Origin: an uncultured Acidobacteriota bacterium
GTDB lineage: Bacteria > Acidobacteriota > Polarisedimenticolia > J045
DNA length: 30,137 nucleotides
NCBI GenBank assembly: GCA_964484415.1
Contig: CAZAHQ010000001.1
Coordinates: 1 to 30,137 of the forward strand
Reading direction: 5' to 3'
The notes under the pieces are model-generated. The model made no database searches, was not told the origin of the DNA, and saw only the letters and a list, made by a program, of their open reading frames with translations. Position 1 is the stretch's first letter. Every line of letters starts with the position of its first letter. The translations under genes and the position numbers were made by a program. Positions 1 to 27,000 of the stretch are shown in pieces.

Positions 1-1296
1 CGCTGCCACCGGTGAGTGGACGCTGGTCTTCATCGAGTTAGCCTCGGCATCGGTGTGGCACTCGTAGCAAACCTTGTCCTGCCTGGCTTTCATGATTGCC
101 GGCACACCGGAGCCGTGCGGGTTGTGGCAGGACAAACACATCCCCTGGCCGAACGGCATGTGCTCGACCTTCGGGGCAGGAGCGTCCTTCATCGCCGTGT
201 GACAACTAAAGCAGAGATCGTCTTCTTTCACCGCCAAGATCGCCGTGCCGAAACCTGCGTGCGGAGAGTGACACGACAGGCAGCCCTTCTCGTCGAGCAT
301 CGGCTGGTGCGGGAACGGTTGCTCTTTGACCTGCTCCTCATGGCACTCGGCACACAACAAGTTCCCGGCTTTGGAAACCAACTTCGGTTGTTGCGATGAG
401 TGCGGATCGTGACACGACAAGCACATCCCGGTTTCGAATGGAACGTGAACGGTATCGCGACCCGCGGTGAGCTTGGCCGAGTCGTGACACTCGGCACACA
501 TCTGTTCGGCATCACCCTTGAGGGTGAACGGCGTTGGCGAGGTTGCGGCTTGGTGACACTTGTCGCAGGCCGCAACCGCCACTGGGTTGTGGACGCTGGT
601 CTTCAAGAGGCCCTTGAGAGTGGACGAGTGAGGATCGTGACAGACGCTGCAGTTGGACTTCTCGACGGGGTAGCCGGCGTGCGCTCGTTTGAACGCGTCC
701 TTACCCGGCTCGTGACACGAGATGCAAAGCGCGGTCTGCGGCTTGATCAAGAGCGCCGCTTCGCTCGACCCGTGCGAGCTGTGACAGGCCGAGCAACCGT
801 CCTTGCGCAGTACCTCGTGCACGATCGGCTTTTCGAAGGCCGCCTTGGCGTGACATTCATAGCAGGACGCAGCCCCCTGTTTCTTGAGCAGGTGCGCTCC
901 ATCGGAGGCGTGCGCTTCGTGGCAGACCGTGCACTTCCCGCCCTTGAGCGCGGAATGAACGAATTTCTGGTCAAGGCCGAGTTCTGCTTTCTTGTGACAG
1001 TCAAAGCAGAGATCGTTGCCATCCTTCTTCAGGAGTAGCTTGGGTACGAGCCCGTGACGCATGTGGCAATCTTCACACTTGCCGGTCGTGACCCCCGGAT
1101 GCGCCGTCTTGGCGGCGGAATACTTGGCGGCCTCTTGCTTGTGGCATTCCAGACAACTCTTGGGTTGAAAACGCCGAGCCTCTGACCATGCCGGATGGCC
1201 ACTGACGAACAGCAGGGCAATCAGCAGCCCGAGCGGCGCACAGTGTTCAGCCAACCGTGGGAGCCACGAACCTTGGATCGGTTTGATCACGCACAT
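1..1296 (-). CDS. Multiheme c-type cytochrome, paired/doubled CxxCH type, at least 16 hemes; partial, continues beyond the left edge
   Basis: Not in the ORF track because there is no stop in the window. Manual translation from ATG 1296 gives 432 open codons: signal-peptide-like N-terminus (LGLLIALLFVSGHPAWSEA), then CLECH, CEDCH, CFDCH, CTVCH, CYECH, CSACH, CISCH, CSVCH, CDKCH, CAECH, CLSCH, CAECH, CLSCH, CFSCH, CLSCH, CYECH. Every second motif tends to be CxxCHxxH, preceded by a distal His (AHPG, VHSA, VHEV, VHNP, VHVP, EHMP). GTG 1290 is an alternative start. Confidence 0.95.
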   Translation of the reverse strand, partial: MCVIKPIQGSWLPRLAEHCAPLGLLIALLFVSGHPAWSEARRFQPKSCLECHKQEAAKYSAAKTAHPGVTTGKCEDCHMRHGLVPKLLLKKDGNDLCFDCHKKAELGLDQKFVHSALKGGKCTVCHEAHASDGAHLLKKQGAASCYECHAKAAFEKPIVHEVLRKDGCSACHSSHGSSEAALLIKPQTALCISCHEPGKDAFKRAHAGYPVEKSNCSVCHDPHSSTLKGLLKTSVHNPVAVAACDKCHQAATSPTPFTLKGDAEQMCAECHDSAKLTAGRDTVHVPFETGMCLSCHDPHSSQQPKLVSKAGNLLCAECHEEQVKEQPFPHQPMLDEKGCLSCHSPHAGFGTAILAVKEDDLCFSCHTAMKDAPAPKVEHMPFGQGMCLSCHNPHGSGVPAIMKARQDKVCYECHTDAEANSMKTSVHSPVAA

Positions 1297-1596
1297 TGTC
1301 TGGCCTGTTCCTCGGGCTGAAATCGTACGTCCATCTTACGCGAGTGCAGGATCTGTTCTCTCAGTCTGAGTTTGATCTCTTGGGTACAGTTTCGGTCAGT
1401 CTTCGTATCGCGCTGTGACCTTGGTCAAGCCTTCCGGTTGTGTCGGGACGCGACGGCGCAGCGTCCGAGACAAATCCATGTCTTTGGCCTATCCAAGGAT
1501 CGGCAACCGATCACGATCAAGGCTTGACTTGTCCCGATTGCGCACACGCGGGATACCGGTTACCGCGCTCCGAGTCGGGCACTCGGCGACGGCACG

Positions 1597-3156
1597 TCAG
1601 GCGGAGGTGGGGGCGGCAACGTGGGATTCCGCCGCTTCCTTCTTTCGGCTTCGAAACCAGGTGCGCCAGCCTTCGGTCAGCTCCAAGAAACCCCACCCGA
1701 CGATGGCCTTCACCAGCAGCTTCCCACTGGCGGGCTCCAACGAAAACCCCGGAAACAAGAACCGCTTTCCACCATTCTGTCGCCCCAACGCGCGGCGCTC
1801 ACGACGGGCACTCGCGATGCTGGCGAAGCGACGGTTGTAGCCGCGCATGAAATAGAAAAACGGTGTCGACGGCGGGGTCATGAACACCGGCTCACGCAGC
1901 GCCACCTCGCCGCGCTTGAACGGCTGCGACACGATGCCGAGGTAGAAGAACCCGAGGTCCATGGTGAACGCCAGACGCATCAGGTCGTATTCGCCGAGAT
2001 ACTCGTACTTGTCCTTGTATACGGCCTCGAACCAGCGGTCGTAGCTGCGTCGAAAATCGCGATTGTGTTTGGCCACGAGCGGCGCTACCGACTCGCCGCG
2101 TTGCTGTGCGGCGATCAGGTCGACGCTGCGGCACACCGTATAAGTGATCCAATCCATGCCAGGACTGTAGAGCGGATCCATGAATGCGGCGGCATCGCCG
2201 ACCAGCGCAAAACCGTCGCCCGCGAACTGTGTGCTCGAGTACGGCAATTGTCGTCGTACGTGCACATCGCCTTCGATCCAGGTGGCGTCGGCCAACAGTT
2301 CTTTGCCAGCCGGATGCAGCGAGAGAAAGTCCTTCAGCTTTTGTCCTTGCGAGCCACCCTTGGGCCATTCCATGCGGCGTTGGTCGTAAACGACGCCGAT
2401 GCTGACATCGCCACCCTTGAGTGGAATCCACCAGGCCCACCAACCGTCGCCGGTGAGATGGTTGGTGGCGGTGCTTCGCAGTCCAAAGGCGGCTTGGCCC
2501 CAAGCTGGGAACTTGGTCGCCAAGGCGCGGCTGTCCCAGTCCTTCACACCGCGCCAACGCGACCATACCGCGCAGGTCGGATGCTCTTCGTTGAGGCGAT
2601 GCCAGCCCTCCTGGCGGGCCAGTTGCGCCGCCAGCCCGGAAGCATCGACGACCCATCGTGCGTCGATCTGTTGAGTCTCGTCCCCATGCTGGACTGTCAA
2701 CCTCTGCTCACTGCCGTCGCACAGTTGAACGCGACTGACCTTGGCGGGGCGCATCAGCGTGATCCCCATCGCCACGGCGCGACTCAGTACTTCTTCGTCG
2801 AGCACCGATCGATCGACTTGATACGCAGGTAACCGCACCTGATAACGCGGCCCGATCTCGCTGCAATCGGCCAGCGAGTGTGCCTGTTGGTTGGAGAACC
2901 AGAAACGCATCCCCTGCTTGACCAGGTGCGATTCGTTGAGATGTTGGGTGAGGTCCAAGACACGTCCCAGGAAGAACGCGCTGACCTCGACCGTCGCCTC
3001 CCCCACCTTGCGCGTGAACTGCGTCGCCTTCTCGACTACCAAAACTCGCAACGAAGGGTTGTCGCGAAGCAAGAGGATCGCGGTGGCTGCACCGGAAAGC
3101 GAGCCGCCGATGATCGCGACGTCGTACTGCCGACGGCCTGGGTCAGGTGCGCTCAT
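1597..3156 (-). CDS. Flavin-dependent halogenase (tryptophan halogenase superfamily)
   Basis: Rossmann motif DVAIIGGSLSG, KVGEA, candidate catalytic Lys in HLVKQGMRF, halogenase WxWxIP motif (WAWWIPL), GDAAAFMDPLYSPG. Start at MSAPD (3156) preferred; ORF track start 3186. Confidence 0.85.
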   Translation of the reverse strand: MSAPDPGRRQYDVAIIGGSLSGAATAILLLRDNPSLRVLVVEKATQFTRKVGEATVEVSAFFLGRVLDLTQHLNESHLVKQGMRFWFSNQQAHSLADCSEIGPRYQVRLPAYQVDRSVLDEEVLSRAVAMGITLMRPAKVSRVQLCDGSEQRLTVQHGDETQQIDARWVVDASGLAAQLARQEGWHRLNEEHPTCAVWSRWRGVKDWDSRALATKFPAWGQAAFGLRSTATNHLTGDGWWAWWIPLKGGDVSIGVVYDQRRMEWPKGGSQGQKLKDFLSLHPAGKELLADATWIEGDVHVRRQLPYSSTQFAGDGFALVGDAAAFMDPLYSPGMDWITYTVCRSVDLIAAQQRGESVAPLVAKHNRDFRRSYDRWFEAVYKDKYEYLGEYDLMRLAFTMDLGFFYLGIVSQPFKRGEVALREPVFMTPPSTPFFYFMRGYNRRFASIASARRERRALGRQNGGKRFLFPGFSLEPASGKLLVKAIVGWGFLELTEGWRTWFRSRKKEAAESHVAAPTSA

Positions 3157-3268
3157 GCGCCGATTATTCGGAGATCCATCATGCATGGCAAACGATTTCC
3201 TCCCTGAAAAGCCCCTGGTGTTAGCATCCGAGGCTCATTCAAACCGGGCATTACAGTCAGAGGTGTCG

Positions 3269-3807: not shown

Positions 3808-4755
3808 CTAGCGCCGTCCACCGGATCTGCGCGCCACGGGCATCGAGTCCTTCAGCTCTGCGCGCAACATGACGTACGAGGCGTGACGCTCAGCACTCAC
3901 GCTGCCGGCGGCCACCGCCGCGAGTACAGCGCACCCCGTGTCCTTGTGATGAGCGCAATCTTGAAACCGACAGTTACCCAGACTGGGACGGAACTCGGGA
4001 AAACAGTGAGCCAGATCGTCGAGTTCGATCCCCCAAAGACCGACCTCGCGCAAGCCCGGCGTGTCGGCCACGAATCCACCGTCGGGCAGCGGAATCAGCT
4101 TGGCGCCCACCGTGGTATGCCGTCCCTTGTTGACCGACGCGCTGATCTCACCGACACGCAGATGAGTGCCCGGGTAGAGCGCGCTGAGCAGCGAAGACTT
4201 GCCGACGCCGCTCGGCCCCGACAGCGCCGATCGCCCCATGGCGAGCACACCTCGTATGGCCTCCAGACCGGCACCGATGTTGGCGCTGGTGAGGTGCACG
4301 GGATATCCAGCCGCCATGAATGGCGCCACGAAGGCGTGCGCTGAGCGTTCATCGACAAGCTCGCATTTGTTCATCACCAGGCGTGCTGCAATGCCATTCG
4401 CCTCGGCGATCACTAGGAACCGGTCGATCATGCGGGCATGCGGTTCGGGTTTGCCGAACGCAAAGACGACGATCACCTGCTCGATGTTGGCGACGACCAC
4501 GCGCGAGCTGAAGCGAGAGCGTGGGTCGCGGCGCGCCAGCGTCGATCGCCGTGGATGAATCGCGTCGATCGCCCAGCCACCGTTCGATCCGCTGCGTGCG
4601 ATCGAGACATCGTCGCCAATCGCGAGTTTGGTGGCGCCTTCGTGCTTCAGTCGTCCGCGCAAGCGTGCGTTGACGATCTCGCCTCCGGCCGTCCACACCT
4701 GCCACCCGCCACCGGTGCCTTCGAGCACGACTCCTTGCTTTGTTACTTCATCCAT
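3808..4755 (-). CDS. rsgA: Ribosome small subunit-dependent GTPase A
   Basis: Circularly permuted GTPase motifs NKCEL, GPSGVGKSSL, GRHTT, DTPG; Zn finger CRFQDCAHHKDTGC; N-terminal OB-fold-like region. Confidence 0.97.
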   Translation of the reverse strand: MDEVTKQGVVLEGTGGGWQVWTAGGEIVNARLRGRLKHEGATKLAIGDDVSIARSGSNGGWAIDAIHPRRSTLARRDPRSRFSSRVVVANIEQVIVVFAFGKPEPHARMIDRFLVIAEANGIAARLVMNKCELVDERSAHAFVAPFMAAGYPVHLTSANIGAGLEAIRGVLAMGRSALSGPSGVGKSSLLSALYPGTHLRVGEISASVNKGRHTTVGAKLIPLPDGGFVADTPGLREVGLWGIELDDLAHCFPEFRPSLGNCRFQDCAHHKDTGCAVLAAVAAGSVSAERHASYVMLRAELKDSMPVARRSGGRR

Positions 4756-4894
4756 GGGCTGTCGCTTTCAGGGTGCCTTGGTGTGACCAAGGGGACATGA
4801 CCCAGCTCGTCAGCGGGGTCGTTGCGATACCGCGCCCGACAGTGCGCCACTTTAAGCGCGGTGGCGAATGTCGATCGAGGTTTGGCCGCTGAAC

Positions 4895-5995
4895 TCAAGC
4901 GCCGAACACTTGATCGAAGAACTCCAGCACCCTCGACGCCATCCAGTTCAGGCGCCCAGGAAACGGCCCGGTGACGAATCCCACGTGCCCACCCGTCAGG
5001 GGTTGGTCCAATCTCACGGCAGGCGACACGTCAACGACACCGGGCAGATGCTCGGATGGGAGAAACGGATCGTTGTGCGCGTTCAACAGCAGTGTCGGCA
5101 GTTCGATCTCGAGCAGGCGGCGGCGTGTCGAGCATCGCGCGTAGTAATCAGCAGCACCGTCGAAGCCGTGCACCGGCGCTGTGAACGCATCATCGAAGTC
5201 GCCCAGCGTCTTTGCTGTTCGAACGCGCGCCGCATCGGCGAGTCCTGGAAACTGCTCGATCTTGCGCAGCGCAGTGGGGACGAGCGTCTTGAGAAAGTGG
5301 TGTGCGTAGAATCGATTGAATCCTCGCGCCAACGACCGGTTGGCCGCCGCCAGATCGAACGGAGTGCTCACCGCGGCGACGGCCGAAACGAGATCGTTCG
5401 CCCGCGCGCCCTGCTCGCTGAGCCACTTCACGATCACATTGCCGCCCAACGAGACACCGACGACCAAGATGGTTGCTGCGGGCCAGTCGAGGCGCAAGCG
5501 GCGCAGCACCCAGTCGGCTTCGTTTGAATCGCCAGAGTGGTATGTCCTCGGCAGCAGGTTCGGTTCGCCGGAGCAACCTCGAAAGTGAACGACCACGCCA
5601 CGCCAACCACGAGTCGCGACGGCGCTCATCAGCGTGAGCGAAGAGTGGCTCCGAGAATTTCCTTCCAGCCCATGAAACAACACGACCAGCGGAGGCTCGG
5701 ATGATTCGGCGCCGACCACGCCGATCGCCTTCTCGCGGTGGGCCTGCAACCGCGGACTGCTCGGCGCGGACGCTAGCGCCGCCGCATCGAGCCAGTCCAG
5801 ATCGATGAAGTCACCATCGGGTGTCGTCCAACGTTCCCGCTTGTATCGAATCACCGGCGCGCGGCAAACGAAGGGCCATAACGTCTGTGCGTTCCCCCCT
5901 GGCAGCCACGCTGGCGCACGATACAGGCTGCTACTCACGCTTAGTTCCCCCAAAGGCGACATGGTATGCGCAACGACTGGCTGCGAGGCGAGCAC
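4895..5995 (-). CDS. YheT-family alpha/beta hydrolase
   Basis: PAWLPGGNAQT, DGDFIDLDW, HGLEGNS, FRGCSGEPN, GVSLGG (nucleophile Ser), NDPFL (Asp), GGHVGF (His). Start could be ATG 5962. Confidence 0.9.
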   Translation of the reverse strand: MLASQPVVAHTMSPLGELSVSSSLYRAPAWLPGGNAQTLWPFVCRAPVIRYKRERWTTPDGDFIDLDWLDAAALASAPSSPRLQAHREKAIGVVGAESSEPPLVVLFHGLEGNSRSHSSLTLMSAVATRGWRGVVVHFRGCSGEPNLLPRTYHSGDSNEADWVLRRLRLDWPAATILVVGVSLGGNVIVKWLSEQGARANDLVSAVAAVSTPFDLAAANRSLARGFNRFYAHHFLKTLVPTALRKIEQFPGLADAARVRTAKTLGDFDDAFTAPVHGFDGAADYYARCSTRRRLLEIELPTLLLNAHNDPFLPSEHLPGVVDVSPAVRLDQPLTGGHVGFVTGPFPGRLNWMASRVLEFFDQVFGA

Positions 5996-6014: not shown

Positions 6015-7958
6015 TCAGGGTTCGGTCATCTCCGACTTCAGCTGCTCGATCAGCGATGGCAAGTGAAACCGCGACTCCGCGCTGTCAGGTGCCAATGCGA
6101 TCGCCTGCTCGAACGACTCGAGAGCAGCGTGCTTGTTGCCGATCGCCATGTACGCGAGCCCCAGCTCCACTCGCGTGTCGGCATCGCGCGGGTTGAGTTG
6201 CTGCGCGGCTTGGAGTTGCTCGATCGCCTCTTGGTTGCGCCCCAGCCGACGCAACAGCCCGCCCAGGTTGTAGCGCGCAATCACCGACTCAGGTTTTGCA
6301 GCGACACACGCCGCGTACTCGGTGACGGCCTCTTCCAACCGATCCGCTTCAGCCAGCAGACCCGCGAGCTGGAATCGATCCTCGATCGACGCGGCGCTGC
6401 TCGAGATTTTCTTGCGTAACACCTCGATCACGTCGGATGCGCGTCCTGCCGCTTGCAGCACGTCGATCAGGTTCTGCTGCAATGCCGGATCGTCCGGGCG
6501 CAGCGCTGCCGCTTCCTTCGTATCTGCGATCGCGGCCGGAATGTCGTCCTTCAGCAAATGACACCAGGCCAAGCCCAACTTGACCTCCGGCACGCCGACC
6601 AAGCCCCAACGATCGGCAAGCGAGAAGTGCTGAAACGCCGCAGCCATGGCGTTGTGGTGTCGGGCAGAGTAAGTCCGCTCTCGAAACGCGCCGCTCAACA
6701 CATCGGCGCGCGAGCTTTCGGTTTGCTCCAGGTAGTGCGCCCCGCGCGCGCGCTGCCACTGCACGAACGCGCTGTGCGCCACGAACACCATCCACAGTGA
6801 GGCCAGGCCAACAACGATCAGGGAGCGCGTCTGAACCTTTCCCGAACTCTTCAGTGTCAAGTTCTGGACTCTGACGCTGGGATCTCGAAACACTCGGAGC
6901 AGCATCAAGGCGAGAAACGCCGTGATGCCGCCAAGCCCAATCGACATCAACAGCGGCGGCCCGTCGTACAGCCCACGAAACGCGAGCGTGGCGATCGCAC
7001 ATACGATCAACACCAGCGTCTCATCGAAGACGCTGAGATCGTATCGTTTGGATCGCTCCGCGGTCGGAAGGCGCGTCAGAGCCGCGGGCCTTGCAAATGA
7101 GAAGCTGAGCGCTTCCTTCGGGCAGACACTGACGCAATCGAGGCACTTCATGCAGCCCGGATCGACCACCATGCCGTAGAGCTTGACCTCTTCGTGAACC
7201 CGCACGTTGGAGGTACAGGTTGCCGTGCAATGGCCGCACTGCTCGCACGCATCACTCACCACGATGCGTCCCGGCGACAATCGGTCCAAGCCACCGAAGG
7301 CGGCACCGTACGGACACCCGTAGGTGCAAAAACCTTTGGATCCCAAGAAGTACACCGCCGCAAAACCACACGACAGAAACGTCAGCGTTGTGAACAACGG
7401 GCCGGGGAACGTCGCCCAGAACGACGACGTCACGAGATGGTTGGTGAATCCGGGAAACGGAGGGACGGCGCTCGGCATGACGAGCCGCTTCAGGCTGGGC
7501 CAGACAAACATGTAGAGCATCAGAGCTAACGGTACGAAGGCCAGGAATCGCGAGCGAAACGGCTTGGGTCGAACACCGAGCTTCTTCATGATCCAAGCGC
7601 ACAGGTCCTGAAGTGCGACGAGGTGACAGGCCCATCCGCAGAAGAACCGGCCAAAGACCAGCGTGCCGAGCAACGTCAGCGCGAAGAAGATGAAACCGGC
7701 GTTGAGGTAGCCGAGCTCCAACGTGTACATGCTCTCCGAGGGCTCGACCGGCGAGAGCGTCTTCCCTGCGAGCATGAAGTGCGTGACGTGCGCCGCAACC
7801 AACGCGTGCACACCGACCAGCACGGCGGCGCGCCACTTGCTGTTCTTGGACTTTCGCAGCGCCGAAAGCGAACCGCGGCCAGCGACCGGGAGCATCGGGT
7901 CGCTCGGGTCGACACCGACGCTGCACCGGCTGGACTTCTGGCTCGTCGCCTTCTTCAC
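6015..7958 (-). CDS. Membrane 4Fe-4S polyferredoxin (NapH/MauN/RdxA-like core) fused to C-terminal TPRs
   Basis: Several hydrophobic helices; FFCGWACH and FCTYGCPYG motifs; two ferredoxin motifs CEQCGHCTATC and CMKCLDCVSVCP; TPR-like repeats at the C-terminus (ARYNLGGLL..LGRNQEAIEQL..A..LNP; TRVELGLAY..IGN...A...FEQAIALAP). Start GTG 7958 or ATG 7895. Confidence 0.88.
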   Translation of the reverse strand: MKKATSQKSSRCSVGVDPSDPMLPVAGRGSLSALRKSKNSKWRAAVLVGVHALVAAHVTHFMLAGKTLSPVEPSESMYTLELGYLNAGFIFFALTLLGTLVFGRFFCGWACHLVALQDLCAWIMKKLGVRPKPFRSRFLAFVPLALMLYMFVWPSLKRLVMPSAVPPFPGFTNHLVTSSFWATFPGPLFTTLTFLSCGFAAVYFLGSKGFCTYGCPYGAAFGGLDRLSPGRIVVSDACEQCGHCTATCTSNVRVHEEVKLYGMVVDPGCMKCLDCVSVCPKEALSFSFARPAALTRLPTAERSKRYDLSVFDETLVLIVCAIATLAFRGLYDGPPLLMSIGLGGITAFLALMLLRVFRDPSVRVQNLTLKSSGKVQTRSLIVVGLASLWMVFVAHSAFVQWQRARGAHYLEQTESSRADVLSGAFRERTYSARHHNAMAAAFQHFSLADRWGLVGVPEVKLGLAWCHLLKDDIPAAIADTKEAAALRPDDPALQQNLIDVLQAAGRASDVIEVLRKKISSSAASIEDRFQLAGLLAEADRLEEAVTEYAACVAAKPESVIARYNLGGLLRRLGRNQEAIEQLQAAQQLNPRDADTRVELGLAYMAIGNKHAALESFEQAIALAPDSAESRFHLPSLIEQLKSEMTEP

Positions 7959-8012
7959 AACGCCGGCGCTCGCGAACCTATCCGGCTTGCACGCGTCTCG
8001 CGCGATGCCGCA

Positions 8013-9968
8013 TCAAGGGCACGCCCGGCCGGCGATCGGTTGATTCAGCGAGCTGAAACCGAGCGGTCCCGATCCCGACGGGCAACCGTTCTTCGCACGC
8101 ACCAAGTAATGGAACGCCTGACCAGCCGCCGGGACTGTGCTGTCGGTGCCGGAAGTGTTGGACGGATTGGCCAATGTCATGCAGCTTGCGGCGGAAACGA
8201 AGTCGGCCGGATCGGGCGATCGAATCAGATCGTAGGTGACATCGATCGCACCCTTGTCGAGTGGTGGCGACCAGGAGAGGTTGGTCACGCTGCCCGACTT
8301 GGTCAGGCGCAGATCACTTGCCTCCGTCGGCTTGGCCCACACCAACGGGTCGGCATCGTTGCAATCACACGGCCGGCCGTCGCCATCGTGATCGACACCG
8401 GAGCAGGCCGCATCGATGCAGCAATCGACATCGGCACAATCGATTTGCGCGTCGCAATCGTCGTCGCGTCCGTTCTGACAGGAGAACTCGTTGGCCTGTT
8501 GCGCGCCGCAGTCGGCGGCACAGCGACACGGGTTTTCACCCACCTCGCAGGTTCCGTTACCACAGCAGCCGGTCCCTCCGCCCTGATTCGAGCAATCGGC
8601 AGGGCAATTCGTGCAGTCTTCTCCCGATTGGCAAACTCCGTCGCTATTGCATGCCGATGGAACGACCGTGTTGATTGTGAACGACGTGGGTGAGCCCGGT
8701 TTGAAGATACCTGCCGTAATTTGGAAATTGCCCGGCGGCACGTTTGCGTCGAAGCGGAAGTTGTAGAGTGTTCCCCAACGCAGCGCATTGGCGTTGGGAT
8801 TGGCTGCAAAGGTCTCGCAGTTCCATTTCACCGATGTGGCGTCGACCGTCGAACTCCAGTCGGTACCGACGAATGGCTCGCCACTGTGGTAGCTCACATC
8901 ATGAAAGCCGACGTTACTGATAGCAGCACCGGGTGGAATCGGTACGCTGAAGCTGCCGATCGCTCGGTCCGAGTTTTGGTTGTAGAACGCGTACTCGTAG
9001 CGATACTGACCACCACCCAGACTGGTGGCGCGCGCACCCAAGATCACACGCCCATCGCCAGGCACATTCGTGTTGGTGAGCGTGACACCGGGATCGATGG
9101 TCGGCCACAGTTCGATCGCAGACTTCATTCGCTGTGTGGAGCCGGTCAAAGTGATGTCGAAATTCCCCGCTGAGAGAACCGAGATCGTGATCGGTCGCAC
9201 CGAGGTGTTGTTGTTTTGGTTGTTGGCGGAGGCGTCATCGTGCGTGACGTAATGACCCTCTACCCAATACAACGCCCCCGTGTTCTGGGCCGGATCGAGA
9301 TCGACGTTCTGCACTTGAAGGCGCTTGTAAATGACGTTACCGGTTCGGCTCCCGTCGGTGGGCGGATACGGAAACGCGCCACTTTTGGGATTGACCTCGA
9401 ACTTGGGTCCCAAGCGCGTTTGATTCCCGTTGAGACTGCTGCTGTAAGGGTCGGAACAGTTCACACCCAAGCGGTCGCCGCCGTTCGGTGGAATGCAAGA
9501 CGTTGAGCAAAGCGTTTCCGCCAACGCCGTGAACCCGTGCTTCAGCCAACTCTGGCCGATCTGTTCGAACCGGCCGTTCTTCAGCCGGTACATGTTCTGT
9601 CCGATGACGGGGTGCTTAGGGTTACCGGACTCCCACTCCAACCAGCACGAGCCGATATTGCACGACGTGGTGCCCACGGAAAACGCGGTAATACCGCCGA
9701 CAGTACCCCAGCGCGTCTTGCCGGTGAGGTCACCGACGATGACATCCGGAACCTCTCCGCTGAACTGACAGGACAGCGTGCAACAGGAGTTGGCGTTGCC
9801 TGTTTCTGTACCGTCGTCGCACTGCTCGCCAGCCTCGATGACTCCGTTGCCGCAGGTGGCTGCGCGCGCCGACGTCAGCGAGGCCATAGCCAAGGCGGCC
9901 GCGAGGAGGATCCGAAACGCTACGTTTTGCCCAGTGAGATTATCTGCCGTCGTGGCGCTTGGCTTCAT
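8013..9968 (-). CDS. Secreted Cys-rich multidomain protein of unknown function (Myxococcus-type Cys-rich repeat, conserved core domain, beta-sandwich, Cys/Asp-rich linker, C-terminal FN3-like domain)
   Basis: Signal peptide (FRILLAAALAMASLTSARA); CGNGVIEAGEQCDDG repeat; core from PDVIVGDL; CGNGTCEVGENPCRCAADC; DDDCDAQIDCADVDC and DHDGDGRPCDCND Ca-binding-like motifs. ATG 9968 preferred over track start 10118 because the signal peptide follows it. Confidence 0.88.
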   Translation of the reverse strand: MKPSATTADNLTGQNVAFRILLAAALAMASLTSARAATCGNGVIEAGEQCDDGTETGNANSCCTLSCQFSGEVPDVIVGDLTGKTRWGTVGGITAFSVGTTSCNIGSCWLEWESGNPKHPVIGQNMYRLKNGRFEQIGQSWLKHGFTALAETLCSTSCIPPNGGDRLGVNCSDPYSSSLNGNQTRLGPKFEVNPKSGAFPYPPTDGSRTGNVIYKRLQVQNVDLDPAQNTGALYWVEGHYVTHDDASANNQNNNTSVRPITISVLSAGNFDITLTGSTQRMKSAIELWPTIDPGVTLTNTNVPGDGRVILGARATSLGGGQYRYEYAFYNQNSDRAIGSFSVPIPPGAAISNVGFHDVSYHSGEPFVGTDWSSTVDATSVKWNCETFAANPNANALRWGTLYNFRFDANVPPGNFQITAGIFKPGSPTSFTINTVVPSACNSDGVCQSGEDCTNCPADCSNQGGGTGCCGNGTCEVGENPCRCAADCGAQQANEFSCQNGRDDDCDAQIDCADVDCCIDAACSGVDHDGDGRPCDCNDADPLVWAKPTEASDLRLTKSGSVTNLSWSPPLDKGAIDVTYDLIRSPDPADFVSAASCMTLANPSNTSGTDSTVPAAGQAFHYLVRAKNGCPSGSGPLGFSSLNQPIAGRACP

Positions 9969-10264
9969 GAACCCTGCCTTGGTGAGGATCACAAAAAAAG
10001 TGCCGACCCTGCTCGAGAGCCGACGACCATTGACTCGGTTTGACCAGCAGCGTACCGCCCTAACAACAGACTCCCCTTCAGAGCCGCGGGAGTATACGGC
10101 GCTCCGCGAACTTGACACGATTAAAGAATGGTTAGGCTCAGGCGCCGTTCAGCAACCGCGCCTTGACTGAACTCGAGCGACCCCTCCCGGGCAGGATCGG
10201 AGCGGACGCCTGCTAGGCGCGATCGACCGGCTAACTCCCGGTTTCGCTTGGCATGCTGCCGATC

Positions 10265-10400
10265 CGCCCTTGTTCCAGACGATGGTGTATCGCCATAGCG
10301 GATGCCAATGCACCTTTGACCCGGGCAACGCCGTCTCGTACCGGTCATGGACCTCTGCCTACGTCCTGTATCGCTCGTGCGAGCGATGCTCGTGCCATAC
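10265..10400 (-). pseudogene. Possible C-terminal remnant of a class I SAM-dependent methyltransferase
   Basis: Manual translation RT*AEVHDRYETALPGSKVHWHPLWRYTIVWNK resembles the TY.E......LPG....H.LWRY..VW.K tail I recall from small methyltransferases. It has an in-frame TAG and no N-terminus. Confidence 0.3.
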
Positions 10401-10489
10401 ATCTCGCAGGGCACGACCCCCGCGAAGGCGATGGAGTACCCGCCAGACGGCGTCGCCGCTGACGAGCGCGTTGCCTCATCGATCCTGCT

Positions 10490-10868
10490 ACCGACGGCAA
10501 GCAGCTCGATGCTCGAGGGCCTAGCGGAGACACTGACGATCACGGAGTTTGCGATCGGTGAGAATCTGCGGAAGTCGATCAGCTCGAGCAACCCTCTCGA
10601 GAATCTGCAGAGGGAACTGCAACGGGTGGCCCGCAACGTCAAGCGCTGGCGCGGCGGACAGATGACGCTGCGTTGCTGCGTTGGGGAGCAACTGGACTTC
10701 AAGTGGCTGAACGTCGCTTCAGGAGGATCAAGGGTTACAGAGACATGCTCGCGCTGATCCGCGCGATCGATGCGGCCGTACGCAGGTCGATGATAGACAA
10801 CAAGAAGATGTCGCCCACAACATACCAACCACCCGCCGTTAGCTTTCAACAATCAACGGGTCATCCCC
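10490..10868 (+). mobile_element. IS256-family transposase C-terminal relic with probable right end
   Basis: SSMLEGLAETLT...LRKSISSSNPLENLQRELQRVARNVKRWRGGQM, then after a frameshift LRWGATGLQVAERRFRRIKGYRDM: the IS256 transposase C-terminus. The frameshift is an 8-bp tandem duplication CTGCGTTG (10668-10683). TTTCAACAATCAACGGGTCATCCCC (to 10868) resembles an IS256 terminal repeat. Confidence 0.8.
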
Positions 10869-15448: not shown

Positions 15449-16831
15449 ATGAAGGCAAGCAATCGGAGTACGGCCTCGCCACGAACCATCTTGATCGTCG
15501 ACGACGATCCTGACGTGCGCTCTGTGCTCGACCAACTGCTCTCCCCGCACTTCGAGCTGCTTGGCGCCCACGATGCCGCGTCGGCGTTGATGCTCGCACG
15601 GAAACACCAGCCAGGCGTCGCCTTGCTCGACCTGCATCTCGGTGACGGACCCGATGGATTCTGGTTGCTCGAGCGACTCAAAGCGCTCGACCCCGCACTC
15701 CCAGTCGTCATTCTGTCGGTCGATCGCGATACGGAAACGATCGTGCGCGCCATGAAGGCCGGCGCTGCCCACTACATCGGCAAGACGCCGCGTTATGACG
15801 AGTTGCTCGAACGACTGCGGCTCGCGTTCGACGAACGCGGTCGAGCGATGCAACTGGAAGCGCATCGTCTGCCCGAGACGGCGGAGATTCTGGGTGACTC
15901 ACCTGGAATGATCGAGGTACGCCGACTACTCAAGCTGGCCGCCGGCTCTGAACTTCCGCTCGTGGTTTTGGGAGAGACCGGCACTGGGAAGGGTTTGGTC
16001 GCCAGGGCCACGCATCTGGCCAGCACTCGGCGCAGCGGACCGTTTCGCGATGTCAACGTCGGCGGGCTCCCGTCGTCGGTGCTCGACAGCGAGCTGTTCG
16101 GTCACGAACGCGGCGCATTCACCGGCGCCGAGCGTTTGCGCCGCGGATTGTTCGAACTCGCGGCCGGCGGAACGATCCTCTTGGATGAAATCGGCGACCT
16201 GCCACGCGATTCTCAAGTCAAGCTGCTGAAGGTCGTCGAAGAGGGGCGCGTACATCGGTTGGGCAGCGACGACGACGTGCAGACGGATGTCCGGGTCGTA
16301 GCGGCGACTCATCGTGACCTGAACACCATGATCGCGCAGGGAGCGTTTCGCGCCGACCTGTTCCACCGCTTGGCAGGCTTGGTAATCGAGATTCCGCCGT
16401 TGCGATCACGCCGCGAGGACATCCCGATCCTGACCCGTCATTTCGTGGGGGACGAGTGGGAGATCGCACCGACGGCAATCGACCAGCTCATGGCCCACGA
16501 CTGGCCCGGCAATGTACGCGAGTTGATGCATGTGATGCGCCGCGCCACTTTGTTCGCGCACGATCGCATCATCGGTGGTGAGCAGATTGCGATCCACGAG
16601 ACCGGCAAACGAAGCGATGCGGGCGCGGAACGCGCCGTCTACGCGTTGCCGTATCACGACGCGTCGAAACAAGCCCTGGACCAATTCCGTCGACGCTATG
16701 TCGAGTCGCTGTTGGAGCGCTGCGGTGGAAACGTGTCGATGGCTGCCCGCGAGAGCGGAATTTCGCGAGCCCACCTGCACGCGATGATCGCTGAACTAGG
16801 ACTCAAGTCGCGCGACGGCGATCTCGAATGA
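15449..16831 (+). CDS. Sigma-54-dependent response regulator (NtrC family; REC-AAA+-Fis HTH)
   Basis: ILIVDDD, LLDLHL (phospho-Asp), GETGTGKG, ELFGHERGAFTGA, LDEIG, FRADLFHRL, WPGNVREL, GNVSMAARESGISRAHL. Confidence 0.97.
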   Translation: MKASNRSTASPRTILIVDDDPDVRSVLDQLLSPHFELLGAHDAASALMLARKHQPGVALLDLHLGDGPDGFWLLERLKALDPALPVVILSVDRDTETIVRAMKAGAAHYIGKTPRYDELLERLRLAFDERGRAMQLEAHRLPETAEILGDSPGMIEVRRLLKLAAGSELPLVVLGETGTGKGLVARATHLASTRRSGPFRDVNVGGLPSSVLDSELFGHERGAFTGAERLRRGLFELAAGGTILLDEIGDLPRDSQVKLLKVVEEGRVHRLGSDDDVQTDVRVVAATHRDLNTMIAQGAFRADLFHRLAGLVIEIPPLRSRREDIPILTRHFVGDEWEIAPTAIDQLMAHDWPGNVRELMHVMRRATLFAHDRIIGGEQIAIHETGKRSDAGAERAVYALPYHDASKQALDQFRRRYVESLLERCGGNVSMAARESGISRAHLHAMIAELGLKSRDGDLE

Positions 16832-19800
16832 TGCGGCGAGTCGTGCTGTGGGTGATCAGCGCGGCGCTCTTGGAGTTGTGGGCCGGATCGGTGCGTGCGC
16901 GCGCAGAAGCACCGGCGCCTGCTCCCGAACGAGTCTGGGAACTCGATCTGGACGACTCGGCCGAGGCCTCACGCTGGCAGTTGCTCGATGAACCGCTCAA
17001 TCCAGGGACAATCCGCTGCCGCCACGAGTACGCCTCGCTCGACGGCAAGACGGCGACCGGCACGCTTGTATTCGAAGCAACTCCCGGCATCGGCGCGGCG
17101 AGCCTGACCACCGTCTATCGCCCGTTCCCACCCGACTTCTTTTTGACGCCCAACAACTCCTTCGTTCTGGACTGGTCATGGGAACTGGCCGACACACGAT
17201 TGTCCGATGGGGTCGCGATCGGTTTGGTGATGCAATCCGACCGCGACGGTTCGTTCGAGCGGAGTCCGGTGGCGATCAGTCATACGCGATACACGATCGC
17301 GTGGCGCGTCCTCTTCGATGCGGCCGAGACCTGGTATTCGCATCGGATCGGACTCGGTCAGGAACGGTTCGCGGCGAGTTACGCCAAGGCTCAGCGGCCG
17401 ATCGGCGTCTTCTTCGCATTTCAAGATCCGGTCGCTCAGCGCCTGCGCGTGTCCAAGCTGAGGCTTGAGGCGTGGCCGGCTGGCGCCGTCGATACCGATC
17501 CCCTGTTGGATCCACATCGATTGACTTATGACGAGCGACCTTTCACCCCTTCGATCCCCTCCACGACGACGGCGGCGACCACGCTCGCTGCGGAAGATCT
17601 GGATGGCGATGGCCTGCCCGAGCTGTTGTTGGCTCAACATCATGATTTCGTGCACGTGTGGCGCAACGACGGACACGGTGAGTTCGTCGACGACATCACA
17701 GAACCGGCGGGACTCGTCAGACGGATGATCGCTACCGGCGCGCTGTTCATCGATATCGATCGCGACGGGGACCGCGATCTGGTTCTGAGCGGGGAATTCG
17801 ATGTCCCGATCCTGTTCGAGAATCGCGGCGGTTTGCGCTTCGAGCCGGTGGCCTTGGAGAGCGATCGAGCGCTCGGTTTTTGGTATGGCTGCGCCGGATC
17901 CGATTACGACTTGGACGGCAACATCGACCTTGCGTGCACCACCGCCTTCGGTGCCCCTGGAACAACCTTGCTGCAACAAGCCGGTCCAAAGCACTGGCGC
18001 TCGATCGTACCCTCGGGGTGGGCGGGCGTTTCAACCGCAACTACCAGTGGCTTCGCCGCCGCGTGGGGTGATCTCGATGGCGATCACTATCCCGAGTTGG
18101 CGTTCGGGCGCACGTCCGTCGCGCACAATAGTGTTGGGGTTCTGCAGTCGCCTGAGATGCTCCCAACCCCCGTCACCTCACCGGAAGAAGTCGAGGGACA
18201 GGTGTTCGCCGATTTCAACGCGGATGGCACGCTCGACCTGGCGGTGCTCCGCGACATGCCTCGCAACACGGGCCAGGTCTTGATGCTGTTCAACGGCGAT
18301 GGACAGGGCGGCCTGCAGGAATCGCCGACATCGCATGAAGCGCTCGACCTGAGTGAGGCGGAAGTTCTGCTCGCGGAAGACTTCGATAACGACGGTCGAC
18401 TCGATCTGTACATCTGCCGCGAACATCTTCCCAATGTGCTGCTGTTGCAAACCGCTGCTGATGATTGGCGGGATGCCAGTGAGCTTTCGGGGCTGGCCGA
18501 TCAAGGCGGATGTGCGGGGGCGATCGCCGCCGACTTCGATGGCGATGGTCGGCTCGATGTGGCGATTGCCAGCTATGCCGAGTCGCCTCGGCTGCTTCGC
18601 AATCATCTGGCGAGTGGCCACTGGATCGGTGTGTCTGTATTCGATCGTGCGGGCGCAGACGCCGTCGGCACGCGTATCGATCTGATCGACACCGCGACAG
18701 GCAAACGACTGATGACACGTTGGCTGGAGCGAGGTCAAGGGTTTGGTTCGAACGGCCCGGCCGAGAGGCGCTTCGGCTTGGGGACGCGAACCAGCGCGCT
18801 GATTCGTGCCACGTATCCCTCGGGTGCGATACGCGAGCGCACCATCTCGGACGTCGACCAGAGCGTCACCCTTTCAGAGCCAAGCGATGGACCCCTTGCT
18901 CATGGGTGGAGCCGGCTACGCGAGATTCGCAGCGATATCACCCGCGAGTTCCGCCGGTTTGCCTTGGCCCAGCCGATGACTCGCGTCGCGATCGTGACCG
19001 TCGGACTGGTTGCCGGGTTTCTGATCGTGAGTTGGCGCCCGATGCGATGGTTTTGGTTGTCGCTGTCGGCCCTAGTGGTGGCGCTGAGTTTGATGCTGGG
19101 CTCAGTCCCGGGCCGCGGACTCGGCGGATGGGCTGCGGGGCTATGGGTTTCGGGCCAACTCCTCGGCGCCGTGATCCCGTCCCTCGCAACGATCGTGGTC
19201 CGCGGTGGGCGACGACTCTCGCGTGCCGGAGCGCGGAGTGGATCGCGCGAAGAGCTGATGCGCTGCTCGATCGATTTCCGGCATTCAGGCAGCGAGGCTC
19301 GTGCGCTGATCGCGATTACGGCTCGGCTGCAGAACCTCTTCATCGACGGACGGCTTCACGAGCAGTTCGTGATCCAGTTGCGCGAGCTGGCGGCGGCGCA
19401 CCGGCGTATGTCCATAGCGCGGCTGTCGCAACTGATCTCGCTCAGCGAGCTGGTGCTCGAGAATGCTGAAGAACCGGGCCAACTGAAACGTTCCTCGCGC
19501 CAGGTCGCCACGCTGCTCGCCGAGTTGGATTCGGAGCGACCGCGAACGGATGAGCAGTGGGGTCGCTGGCGGGCCGAGCTGCTCCCACTACTGGATACAC
19601 ATCGCGAGAATGTCGCTGCACTGCTAGCGGCGATCGACCGTCAGGCATCACTTCCGATCCTCGAGGTTCGCGACCTGGTTGAGGCCGCCTGCAAGGAGCG
19701 ACAAGCGCTGATCCCGATCGAGTTCGAGCCGGGGGCGCGGCACCAAGATCGTGCCGTGCAGGTTGTGATCTCGCCGATCGCGCTGACAACCGTGTTGGAT

Positions 19801-20127
19801 GTGTTGCTCGACAACGCGCTCGAGGCGGCACGACCAAATCAGCGGGGAGCAATACTGGTTTCGCTGACGGTCCTGCCGCGCGAGGTCGAGCTCGCCGTCG
19901 AAGACGATGGCGTTGGAATAACACCCGGCACGGAAGCGGAAGTGTTCAAGTTCGGCGTCTCGTCTCGACCTGCGGGTGGTGGGTATGGACTCCCCCGCTC
20001 GCGTGAGCTACTGGCTCATTACGGCGGGCGGCTCGAGCTACGATCGGCTACACAGCTACGCGGGGCGCGATTCATCGTGATCCTGCGTCGTAGTCTGATC
20101 GGCCCGACAGGTGTGCGGTCAACCTGA
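16828..20127 (+). CDS. Atypical membrane sensor histidine kinase: N-terminal beta-sandwich, 7 FG-GAP/VCBS repeats, ASPIC/UnbV, about 3 TM helices, HATPase
   Basis: Signal peptide; seven DxDxDG repeats (EDLDGDG, DIDRDGD, DYDLDGN, GDLDGDH, ADFNADG, EDFDNDG, ADFDGDG); ASPIC/UnbV-like LRN...HWIGV...AVGTRI...GFGSNG...RFGLG...YPSG; N box LDNALEA, G1 VEDDGVGI, F/G2 VFKFGVSSRPAGGGYGL. ATGA overlap with the regulator. Confidence 0.85.
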   Translation: MMRRVVLWVISAALLELWAGSVRARAEAPAPAPERVWELDLDDSAEASRWQLLDEPLNPGTIRCRHEYASLDGKTATGTLVFEATPGIGAASLTTVYRPFPPDFFLTPNNSFVLDWSWELADTRLSDGVAIGLVMQSDRDGSFERSPVAISHTRYTIAWRVLFDAAETWYSHRIGLGQERFAASYAKAQRPIGVFFAFQDPVAQRLRVSKLRLEAWPAGAVDTDPLLDPHRLTYDERPFTPSIPSTTTAATTLAAEDLDGDGLPELLLAQHHDFVHVWRNDGHGEFVDDITEPAGLVRRMIATGALFIDIDRDGDRDLVLSGEFDVPILFENRGGLRFEPVALESDRALGFWYGCAGSDYDLDGNIDLACTTAFGAPGTTLLQQAGPKHWRSIVPSGWAGVSTATTSGFAAAWGDLDGDHYPELAFGRTSVAHNSVGVLQSPEMLPTPVTSPEEVEGQVFADFNADGTLDLAVLRDMPRNTGQVLMLFNGDGQGGLQESPTSHEALDLSEAEVLLAEDFDNDGRLDLYICREHLPNVLLLQTAADDWRDASELSGLADQGGCAGAIAADFDGDGRLDVAIASYAESPRLLRNHLASGHWIGVSVFDRAGADAVGTRIDLIDTATGKRLMTRWLERGQGFGSNGPAERRFGLGTRTSALIRATYPSGAIRERTISDVDQSVTLSEPSDGPLAHGWSRLREIRSDITREFRRFALAQPMTRVAIVTVGLVAGFLIVSWRPMRWFWLSLSALVVALSLMLGSVPGRGLGGWAAGLWVSGQLLGAVIPSLATIVVRGGRRLSRAGARSGSREELMRCSIDFRHSGSEARALIAITARLQNLFIDGRLHEQFVIQLRELAAAHRRMSIARLSQLISLSELVLENAEEPGQLKRSSRQVATLLAELDSERPRTDEQWGRWRAELLPLLDTHRENVAALLAAIDRQASLPILEVRDLVEAACKERQALIPIEFEPGARHQDRAVQVVISPIALTTVLDVLLDNALEAARPNQRGAILVSLTVLPREVELAVEDDGVGITPGTEAEVFKFGVSSRPAGGGYGLPRSRELLAHYGGRLELRSATQLRGARFIVILRRSLIGPTGVRST

Positions 20128-23387: not shown

Positions 23388-23963
23388 TTACCGCTGGACA
23401 CTATCGAGTGCCTCGAGCAGCTTCGCGCTCGGCGCCAGCCCGTAGACACGGGTCCAGTGGCCGGTCGCGAGGCTTCCCACGGTAACCAGCGCCGTGTGGC
23501 TCGCCTTCGGTCCCGTCACACCGAATGCTGCGAGAAGTTGATCGATCGCCGGGCGCGAGCCAGTTACCAAGGACCAGCGCGTTCCGGCGCGGAAGCGCAG
23601 AGCGTGCGCCTGAATTCGTTCGAGTGTATCGGTCTCCGGATCAATCGAAACCGAGATCAAGCGAACATCGCTGCGATCACCTAGATCCTCCTGAAGCTGT
23701 GAGAAGACCGCAGACAACGGCTTACAGATCGTGGTGCACGAGGTGAAGATGAATTGGATAGCGACGCGCTGCCCCTCGACAAGGTCGCTGCGGAATCGCA
23801 ACTCGCGACCGCTTTGATCGACGACCGTTACATCGGGAATCTGCGGTGCCGGCAGCGCAACCGCGTCCTGTTCTGCACCAGCCCGGGCTCGCCATGGTGC
23901 GGCGCTGAGTAGAAGTACCAATCCCGTCGTTGTTGCGCGGAGTAGAGTGCGGCGGCTCGACAT
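23388..23963 (-). CDS. SCO1/SenC copper chaperone
   Basis: PDVTVVDQSG, FIFTSCTTIC (CxxxC), LISVSIDPETDT, WSLVTG, SHTALV (Cu His). ATG 23963 gives an SRRTLL leader and avoids overlap with the oxidase. Confidence 0.93.
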   Translation of the reverse strand: MSSRRTLLRATTTGLVLLLSAAPWRARAGAEQDAVALPAPQIPDVTVVDQSGRELRFRSDLVEGQRVAIQFIFTSCTTICKPLSAVFSQLQEDLGDRSDVRLISVSIDPETDTLERIQAHALRFRAGTRWSLVTGSRPAIDQLLAAFGVTGPKASHTALVTVGSLATGHWTRVYGLAPSAKLLEALDSVQR

Positions 23964-24034
23964 CGCAGAGGCTCCTTCTCGAACTCGAAGAAGAAATGGG
24001 CCCCGAGGCGAACGCCCCGGGGCCCTTGTCGTTG

Positions 24035-27000
24035 TTACGGTGTTGCCGGTGTTGTCTGCTGCACGTCGGCCGGCTTCGTCGTTGTGACGTCGAGCACGCC
24101 CCACATGCCGCCTTCGAGTTGTGTGTCGCCGACTTCGCGCATCAACCACGAGCCGATATTGCTGTCCTTGCTTCCTGCCCCGTAGTTGATTACGAGGTCC
24201 TTGTGAATCGAGACCGATAACCCGGCGATCGCACCCAACGTCATCGAGGGTGTGAACGATGGTTCGTTCGGGAAAGTGTGGCCCGCCAGTGCGAACGAGT
24301 GCTGGCGTGCCCTACCATCCGGCTGAAGGATGCGCAGTCGAACTTTTTCACCACGCTGCGCAGTGAACTTCGGCGTCTCGGGAGTTCCGTTGAAGCTCTG
24401 GAATACGTCGCGTTGCTGTTGCAGGTTGAGCACGCAGTACGGGTCGTTCACACAACCTGCGATACGCGACCAGAACGGCTCGGTCTTGTAGCTCCAGGCG
24501 CGATTGCCTTGATCTTCGGGATCGGCCTGACGGCACGCGTTGACTCCCGGTGGAACTGGCGGGTGGAAGCCGAGGAAAACTTCGTTATCCGGAATGCATC
24601 CGCCCCCTGTGGCGTAGTTTCGTAGGTTCAGGCCGTCTTGATAGAACAGGACGAAGTCGCGGAAATCGGTATTGCCGGAGCCAAGATTGGCCTTCATCAA
24701 TACGCCCTGCCCATGCCGCGGGTAGTTCCCTCCTGGTGGATTGTCATAGCCGGGTGGTTCAAGGATCAGACCACCGATCAATCCTTGCGACCCGTGCTTC
24801 ATGACGTCGCCGTAGTCGCGTAGGTTGGCTGCACCGAGCGATTCAGGGCCGGCGACCGGAATACTTCCTGGATCGCGCGGAGCGCTGAGGTCGGTCGGCA
24901 CGTACCAGCGGTAGGTGTAAGCGTGGTTGCGCCGTACGGTCTGATCGGGATTGAAGCCGACGGCGGTCCCGTCTCCAGTGCGTACGTTGAAATCAGCCAG
25001 TTGCGGGTGGAGCGAAACACGACGCGAGGGTCGCAGGTCGTCGGCGTTCATGCTGACGATTCCCGGGAAGACTGCATCGTCATTGCGATCCGGAATATTG
25101 CGGGGCAGTCGATTGGTAAGCCTGACCGCCAGACACTCACCCGGATTGGCACGAATCACCAACGGCTCCGGTGCTTTCAGCCCAGCCTGCACCGCTGCAA
25201 CATCAGCATCCGGCACAAAGACCAGACCGGTTGGATCCTTGATGCTCTCGCGACCGTTGTACGTGATTGACTTGGCAATCGCTGTCACAGGAACTGAGAT
25301 CACCGGTGCCGTACCCGGGCACGGACTTGGATCGGTTGGGTTTGGCGACAGGCAGGAGTAGCCGGTTGATACCGGGTCTTGGTAGGGCACTGCTGGCAGC
25401 GATGCACAGGTACTCCCCGGGAGTGGTTTCAACTTGGTGTGACAGTCTTTGTACACACGGAGCATTCCCCAATCACCGTTCCACAGATCGTCTGCGGCTT
25501 GTCCGCCGAACAGATAGTCAGAGAAGCACTGCCGTCTGCGTTTGCGCTCGGTGTAGCGGTTCTCGGGATTAGGTTCACGCGCGTTCTCGTACGTATCGAC
25601 TTCATCACCAGCGTCGAGCTTGTTGAACAGCGTGCTGTCGGTGTAGATGCGGTCGACCGCCTGGTCGGCCTTGCTCACCTTGTTCACTGTGCCGTCGGGC
25701 TCGAGTTCGGTATCGAGACGCGCGTTGAGAGCCCGCTTGACCGCGTCTGGCCCAGGATCGGTCGGATCGGTAACGGCCAGGGCAGCCAAGGCACCATCGG
25801 TGGTCTTGTCAGCCGTGAACGGACCCATCAGGTCGAGGCGTGTTTCCCACGCCATCTCGTCCATCTCCGCATCCGTGATGCGGCGCGTGGCCGGGCAGGC
25901 GTAGGGTGCGCGAGCAACGAACTCGAAATGCTCCGAGATACCGACCGCTTGTGCTGCACGGTACCCTGACTTCGGTTCGCTCGGCTCGAACGGCCAGCGG
26001 AAGCCGTTGATGGCGAACGAATGCTGCTCCTCTTGAGCACCCTGAATCAGTCGGAACTTGACTGAGTCACCTTCGTAGGCCATGAACAGCGGCGTCCATG
26101 GGTCACGCCCTTGCACGCAGCTGGAGAAGACATTCGCCATGTCTCCCTTGGCGCCGCCCGCCTGGGTCGCCCCATGGTCGTTGGAGATACGCAACGGGAT
26201 TGGATCGTTGCGATAGTTGAGTAGCATCGATCCCGGGTCCTCGGACGAAAGTGCTTCGGGGACGTCGGGAGGATTGATCGGATTGCCGTTACTGTCGTAC
26301 AGCAACGCGAAATCGGCGATGGCAAGCGAGTACTCGCGGAAGTGGTCGAGTTTCTTGTCTCCGTCGATGTCACCGCTTCCACCGATGATGATGTCGGCAT
26401 CAGGACGCGTCGGACCACCGTCCGAGGCGCGTGTACCGAGCTGCGTACCGGTATACGGATCTTTCCAGATCGTCGGGGTGGCCAGGCTCGTGACCGGCTC
26501 GATGATCAGCGCGCCATAAAAGCCGTGCTGCTGAATCGTCGAAGCGCCGAAGTGATCGTGCGTGAATACGGTACGCAGAGTTCGGTCGAGACCGCCTTTG
26601 TTGAGAAGCGGATCGGCATACCAGCGCTGCACCGTCGTCTGTGCACCAAGCGCTTCCATACCGGCCAATCCCGGGAACGCTGGATTGTTGACCGGGGCAT
26701 AGGTTGGTGTTCCGAGGAATGCGTTGTAGGCATTGATCCGCTGTTGAACCTCCTCATTCGAGAAGGTGCCGTCCTCGTAGTTCCATCCGTTGCCCGATCC
26801 ATCCGACGCAGTGACATCGAACTTGACCAAGTGTATGTGCTGGCCGATGGTGTCGGTCGGTAGACAGACCTGGAAAGCATCCTCCTTGAGCTCGGTGGGC
26901 GTGAGATTGGAGTGATGGAAGTTGATGCACTCGCCTGAATTTGCGCGAATGAAGAATGGATCGGCCTTGACGGAGTCGTTCGCCGTCCAGTGCATGCGAC

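Follow-up and report, generated by a model that had tools for sequence, protein, structure and literature searches.

Here we show that the cytochrome gene at one end of a 30,137-nucleotide stretch of DNA from an uncultured Acidobacteriota bacterium (GenBank assembly GCA_964484415.1, contig CAZAHQ010000001.1, positions 1 to 30,137; hereafter, the window) continues beyond that end and encodes 26 heme-binding motifs, 16 of which lie in the window. Sequence comparison makes it almost certain that this gene is oscI, whose product is the cytochrome with 26 hemes encoded in the omcS-companion (osc) cluster. Both the OscI family and the osc cluster have been published already; specific to the present work are the lineage and habitat of the host, a swapped block order in the cluster and a class-wide count.

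Open frame, heme motifs and contig end

The original prediction, made from the window alone, had described a hidden polyheme cytochrome on the minus strand, with 16 CxxCH motifs in 432 residues and still open at the edge. We obtained the same count and the same frame: from position 1296 down to position 1 there are 432 codons without a stop, and the frame runs off the window. The motifs are spaced 23-28 residues apart, and in 10,000 shuffles of the same residues CxxCH occurred 0.21 times on average and at most 4 times. The repeated GTGACA, cited as the trace of the gene on the opposite strand, occurs 10 times on the plus strand. The overlapping reading frames had been taken for antisense shadows only; antisense frames are indeed present, but two off-frame minus-strand frames overlap the gene too. 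The claimed alternation of CxxCHxxH and CxxCH held for most of the array, with one break at motifs 9-10, both of which are plain CxxCH. In Pfam, the 432-aa frame matched Paired_CXXCH (PF09699), the proposed family, over eight stretches (E=2e-89), and PF02085 weakly. Among NCBIfam models TIGR01905 also matched, while the likewise proposed DmsE-MtrA model TIGR03508 gave 187.6 bits for this 432-aa part against a cut-off of 192.2. Ahead of the first motif, roughly residues 19-34 form a single hydrophobic stretch (Kyte-Doolittle maximum 2.66), in keeping with the predicted signal peptide. The pattern scan of the first 50 residues revealed no lipobox in OscI or OscJ, the start codons being uncertain. 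Upstream of oscI, scans for a sigma-70 promoter and for a terminator were empty, and no conserved sigma-54 site was found there either. The features are listed in Table 1.

Table 1. Features of the oscI region, in window coordinates
Feature	Positions	Strand	Basis
5' 432 codons of oscI (GSU2495)-type gene	1..1296	-	open frame, join with contig C420, orthologue in genome G002
Probable Sec signal peptide spanning roughly residues 1-39, with its hydrophobic core near 19-34	1180..1296	-	hydropathy, lipobox scan, model helix 10-31 of the G002 orthologue
16 heme-binding motifs, residues 48-414	55..1155	-	two-heme Paired_CXXCH units of about 48 aa; candidate distal His conserved
End overlap with contig C420	1..143	-	134/143 bases identical
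300-bp gap separating oscI from the halogenase-like gene; presumably the promoter for oscIJK and for the kinase and regulator genes	1297..1596	-	position only

The window edge is the end of contig C1 of the host genome (G000). The overlap with contig C420 contains 9 mismatches, 7 of them silent and 2 changing an amino acid. To the left of position 1, where the original prediction had suggested looking, C420 continues the frame without a stop or frameshift by 232 codons and 10 hemes, up to a stop at positions 840-842 of L001, and the joined frame encodes 664 aa with 26 CxxCH motifs. An intact oscI of 664 aa with 26 motifs is present in a genome of the same genus, G002 (97.3% identical), and in a second congener, G001 (86%). 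Besides G001 and G002, a single contig from an independent activated-sludge run (X3 record 26) bridges the break between C1 and C420. Similar near-identical overlaps of contig ends are frequent in the G000 assembly (258 pairs). The edge at position 1 is a strain-variant assembly break and no gene end; the motif count of 16 is an artefact, because the contig ends there. A 16-heme protein of the HmcA/cytochrome c3 kind was rejected on the 26 motifs of the whole protein. A wrong join was rejected as well: along most of the window, G002:C4 has the same gene order with 90-95% identity and, therefore, the contig is not chimeric.

Identity of the gene and content of the osc cluster

GSU2495 of Geobacter sulfurreducens has 26 hemes and about 70 kDa (PMC12977616, PMC2996986), and the eight-gene block GSU2500-2493 has been linked to maturation and secretion of OmcS (PMC12977616). 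GSU2495 has been named oscI and listed as periplasmic, GSU2494 has been named oscJ, and roles have been proposed for OscD-H (PMC13194489). On the Geobacter side, we used the blocks of Geomonas limicola and Malonomonas rubra as a stand-in for GSU2495. The OscI of Geomonas limicola (L061:8007-9983) aligned with the 664-aa OscI at 48.7% over 639 aa, with all 25 motif spacings equal; the 664-aa gene was its best match in G000, and the two fell in the same starred clade of the tree. All eight Geomonas genes D-K had their best G000 match on C21, C420 or C1 (53.8% for oscJ, 37% for the NHL gene oscK and 28-52% for oscD-H), and upstream in Geomonas stand gene X (40%) and OmcS-like genes.

On C420, as in G002, oscI is followed by oscJ with 16 hemes and then by the NHL-repeat gene oscK. 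C420 in turn overlaps C21, and in G002 the whole locus lies on one contig in the order halogenase-like gene, oscI, 16-heme cytochrome, NHL-repeat gene, sensor kinase, sigma-54 regulator, gene X (318 aa), hexaheme cytochrome, beta-propeller, 725-aa protein, LpoB-like, CsgG-like and SurA-type PPIase. Pfam matches for the oscD-H set (C21, G002:C4) were YNCE/lactonase, Porin_4 (weak), LpoB-like, CsgG-like (weak) and Rotamase_2. The osc cluster is complete in G000 and G002, with oscD, oscE-F-G, oscH and an OmcS-like hexaheme all present in permuted order. The redox and barrel partners that had been expected left of the window were found, namely the 16-heme cytochrome, the NHL-repeat gene, the OmcS-like hexaheme and a large beta-barrel gene. 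The hexaheme carries six CxxCH and matched OmcS (PDB 6ef8) over its full length at E=1e-110. His2, His13 and His16 of mature OmcS align in it, the last being, as we assume, the inter-subunit ligand.

In the sensor kinase, a CxxCH sits in the segment that separates the two membrane helices. A -24/-12-like sigma-54 site, TGGCACGGAGGCTGCAT, lies at L007:15370-15386 (minus strand), 29 nt before the ATG of gene X, and is identical ahead of the omcS block in the three congeners G000, G001 and G002; against this site speak its short distance of about 15 nt to the annotated ATG and the fact that -24/-12-like patterns occur on the contig at chance frequency. About 4.6 kb from oscH, on the opposite strand, is a membrane cytochrome of the NapC/NirT family, presumably ImcH-like. 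Three membrane helices are predicted for it, and of its 5-6 heme motifs one is a CxxxCH (L007:1-1020, plus strand; L023:6184-7593, minus strand). Cytochrome c assembly genes are present in G000.

Modelled structure and possible heme ligation

The AlphaFold model of the G002 OscI (97% identical) had a pLDDT of 90 and consisted of a repeating short-helix unit with an N-terminal helix. Its sole significant Foldseek match was MtrA (6r2q_A; E=2e-7, prob 1.00, TM by target 0.60), and VIA gave Z 9.2 with an rmsd of 4.4 over 222 residues. A compact c3-like fold, which the original prediction had set against an elongated heme chain, gave no significant match; HmcA (1gws) matched weakly (E=1.9, prob 0.01), too weakly to count for or against such a fold, and the HmcA NCBIfam model did not match the 432-aa window protein at E<=0.001. 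A sequence search found no solved structure of OscI. Since the heme-free model gave no length, calling OscI elongated rests on its likeness to MtrA. After the first motif there are 27 non-motif histidines in the OscI studied here and also in those of Geomonas and Malonomonas, each with 26 motifs. In 34 OscI orthologues the motif Cys and His are invariant and most of the non-motif His are conserved. Judged by this count, 27 non-motif His would be enough to provide the second ligand for all 26 hemes.

The 725-aa OscE was modelled as a large beta-barrel and ends in Phe. MtrB was its best match, with a Foldseek E of 9e-11 and a VIA Z of 16.5 (rmsd 8.9, 420 residues), and TonB-dependent receptors followed at Z 15.4; because these score nearly equal, the match to MtrB may mean just a large barrel. 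A CBM32/discoidin-like insert was seen at about residues 253-417 of OscE (L007:9235-11412, minus strand; VIA Z 11.5, rmsd 3.0 over 125 residues). Prediction of a complex between OscE (26-725) and the C-terminal part of OscJ (140-431) scored 0.00, which is no answer, neither for nor against.

Fusion of OscI and OscJ in other phyla

Among 87 longer homologues, 60 carried 42 motifs, 56 had equal break points and 53 had exactly the motif pattern of OscI followed by OscJ. The named 42-heme fusions belonged to the FCB group, Zixiibacteriota, Latescibacterota and Krumholzibacteria. Because other phyla fuse both into one 42-heme protein, OscI and OscJ most probably work as a single chain. With its constant 26+16 = 42 layout, the pair offers a concrete target for asking how electrons cross the periplasm to OmcS filaments.

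Host and distribution

All named RecA relatives were Acidobacteriota, including Ca. Polarisedimenticolaceae, and the host class is probably Polarisedimenticolia; a Gemmatimonadota host is not supported. Completeness was 82% for G000, in which rpoB was not found, and 96% for G002. Runs with at least a fifth of the sampled words came from sludge, wastewater, bioreactors or biofilters in 11 studies, and two such runs cover 29/30 and 30/30 bins. OscI was present in 32 of the 81 genomes of the class and OscE in 31 of the 81, all within those 32; no genome had OscE without OscI. A close OmcS-like gene was found in 24 genomes, and exactly these 24 carry the close type of OscI; as the 81 genomes are kin, these co-occurrence counts are a description and no test. 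The OscI tree separated two OscI types within the class, and no donor or transfer is claimed from it because its branches are long. Contigs from two RNA libraries covered 1080 and 1332 nt of the omcS-like gene, and oscI in short stretches; we do not claim expression, because contigs from RNA runs show neither strand nor level and may hold DNA. OmcS-like clusters have been reported before in Ca. Polarisedimenticola (10.1101/2020.10.01.322446). Our data show that an acidobacterium of activated sludge possesses the whole OmcS/osc system, which is common in the class (32/81 sampled); these organisms are, therefore, candidates for exchanging electrons within the flocs and biofilms of wastewater.

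Possible role of OscI and OscJ

We lean towards a reading in which OscI and OscJ form an end-to-end 42-heme periplasmic conductor that feeds the OscEFG site and the OmcS-type hexaheme, with the flow likely outward. After Sec export and heme attachment, OscI would fold into a row of MtrA-like units of two hemes each, every heme being His/His-ligated, and would join the 16-heme OscJ end to end. Electrons could then pass from quinol-oxidising cytochromes of the inner membrane through OscI/J to the OscEFG site at the outer membrane, where the OmcS-type hexaheme would be secreted and polymerised with the help of OscH and OscD. In the flocs and biofilms of sludge, the acceptors might be solid phases or partner cells. 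The kinase with the periplasmic CxxCH and the sigma-54 regulator, placed between the blocks, probably switch on omcS-oscDEFGH by redox state. If MtrA spans about 8 nm per ten hemes, as we assume, scaling would give about 20 nm for OscI and about 33 nm for OscI plus OscJ. The periplasm has been described as under 30 to over 40 nm wide (PMC10954620), and the scaled lengths would be comparable to these widths.

Outside the primary osc paper (Shen et al. 2025), our literature search found no experiment on OscI or OscJ. Two published observations speak against a wire: a Geobacter strain that had been evolved towards high current carries a frameshift in oscJ (PMC13194489), and OmcS reportedly receives its electrons directly from PpcA-E (PMC10954620). 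Whether OmcS filaments serve as conduits is itself disputed (PMC11077965), and for OmcS-like hexahemes outside Geobacter nanowire status is not callable from sequence (PMC12977616). A more far-reaching arrangement, in which the 42-heme conductor spans the periplasm, plugs into an MtrB-like OscE barrel and wires the inner membrane to OmcS-type filaments, we consider unlikely. If OscI/J did plug into OscE in this way, about 40% of the sampled genomes of this uncultured class, activated-sludge members included, would be overlooked nanowire formers.

The periplasmic wire suggested originally, possibly part of a porin-cytochrome or extracellular electron transfer system, agrees with the neighbours and with the fold; the wire function itself is likely, but as an inference, and a porin-cytochrome system is one of two published readings of the cluster. 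In the other, the barrel is a secretion channel for OmcS. Of the alternatives to our preferred reading, the porin-cytochrome conduit fares best, although we regard it as rather unlikely: OscI/OscJ would run through the OscE barrel in the way that MtrA runs through MtrB, and would thereby cross the outer membrane themselves, as in the OetABI model. The predicted barrel with MtrB as its best match, the MtrA-like model of OscI and the joint presence of OscI and OscE in 31 of 32 genomes would suit such a conduit, and periplasmic OetA, porin OetI and outer lipoprotein OetB have been proposed beside omcS-like genes (PMC10553843). However, TonB-dependent receptors resemble OscE nearly as well as MtrB does, a CBM32-like domain is inserted in the barrel, neither OscI nor OscJ showed a lipobox pattern, and according to the genetic work reviewed in PMC13194489 OscEFG serve the secretion of OmcS.

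It is improbable, in our view, that OscI/J are instead an assembly helper that sets the redox state of OmcS subunits during folding and secretion, or a periplasmic capacitor, lying off the main respiratory path. Their genes are inherited together with folding and secretion genes, the homologue P0316 fuses OscH to such a cytochrome (rotamase and Paired_CXXCH domains), and gsu2495 is up-regulated on loss of omcB (10.1101/2023.02.27.530372), all of which would fit a helper or store. Yet the heme number fixed across phyla, with its conserved break points, fits a set distance better than a store, and oscIJK stand apart from oscDEFGH in the G000 genus and are inverted in G026. The same wire might run inward, for electron uptake from electrodes, reduced minerals or partner organisms; conduction along heme chains is possible in either direction, and the window also encodes a giant multicopper-oxidase-like protein. 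Although uptake has been proposed for the homologous cluster of sulfate reducers living with methane-oxidising archaea (PMC10553843), we consider this direction very improbable here, as our data hold no sign of lithotrophy and the related cluster of Ca. Polarisedimenticola has been interpreted as serving exchange with cells, humics or metal oxides, its direction left open (10.1101/2020.10.01.322446).

Other genes of the window and the genome

Next to oscI, at 1597-3186 (minus strand), lies a flavin-dependent halogenase-like gene (Trp_halogenase, E=2e-20, below the cut-offs of named families). It stands directly upstream of oscI only in G000, G001 and G002 and is probably unrelated to the osc cluster. 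Positions 3808-5580, covering rsgA and most of the adjoining alpha/beta hydrolase gene, are unmatched in G002, in which the two flanking sequences meet; G001 has both genes, and no RsgA above the cut-off was found in the 96%-complete G002. At 6015-10852 (minus strand) is a 647-aa NapH/MauN-like polyferredoxin with C-terminal TPR repeats, preceded by genes of 701 and 243 aa with no Pfam match, all kept in G001 and G002. A 1099-aa protein at 16828-20127 (plus strand), located after a sigma-54 regulator, combines FG-GAP repeats, an ASPIC/UnbV-like stretch and a histidine kinase ATPase domain. The 1688-aa protein at 23388-29101 (minus strand) gave faint multicopper oxidase matches and is followed by SCO1/SenC.

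Elsewhere in G000, further multiheme frames on L002 (C325), L003 (C281), L004 (C24), L005 (C478) and L006 (C149) carry 23, at least 13, at least 11, 10, 9 and 9 CxxCH motifs, and one further multiheme frame has Ig, PKD and cadherin-like domains. At the OscI position of G004 (L034/L035, G004:C1, about 2497270-2500785) there is a frame of at most 1171 aa with 21 CxxCH, an apparent fusion whose start is uncertain.

Comparison with known systems

The 16-heme HmcA/cytochrome c3 type, with its hemes in class III domains, differs from OscI with 26 hemes. The decaheme MtrA/DmsE (TIGR03508; 6r2q_A) shares the Paired_CXXCH repeat and the fold with OscI but has 10 hemes instead of 26; no barrel gene directly adjoins oscI, and the TIGR03508 score of the 432-aa part falls under the cut-off. 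OetABI of syntrophic sulfate-reducing bacteria likewise brings together a barrel, OmcS-like genes and a pair of large multiheme cytochromes, and the cluster is said to have been first identified in G. sulfurreducens (PMC10553843). OetB is described as an outer lipoprotein, whereas the pattern scan found no lipobox in OscI or OscJ; the two systems are likened cluster to cluster and not gene by gene, a mapping of Oet to Osc genes not being found in the supplements. Ca. Polarisedimenticola svalbardensis AM4 (10.1101/2020.10.01.322446), probably of the same class, is also an acidobacterium in which OmcS-like hexahemes stand among genes for periplasmic cytochromes and beta-barrels, but it is a marine sediment genome with two OmcS-like genes, and its locus is likened by description only.

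The closest likeness is to OscI/OscJ/OscK of Geobacter sulfurreducens (GSU2495/2494/2493), with 26 motifs in about 660 aa, followed by a 16-heme gene and then an NHL gene. Unlike Geobacter, the host of the present cluster belongs to the Acidobacteriota, and the cluster has one OmcS-like gene as compared to three in the G. sulfurreducens operon. In the G000 genus, I-J-K-kinase-regulator stand before X-omcS-D-E-F-G-H, whereas the same-family genomes G005, G013 and G014 have X-S-D-H-I-J-K, as in Geobacter.
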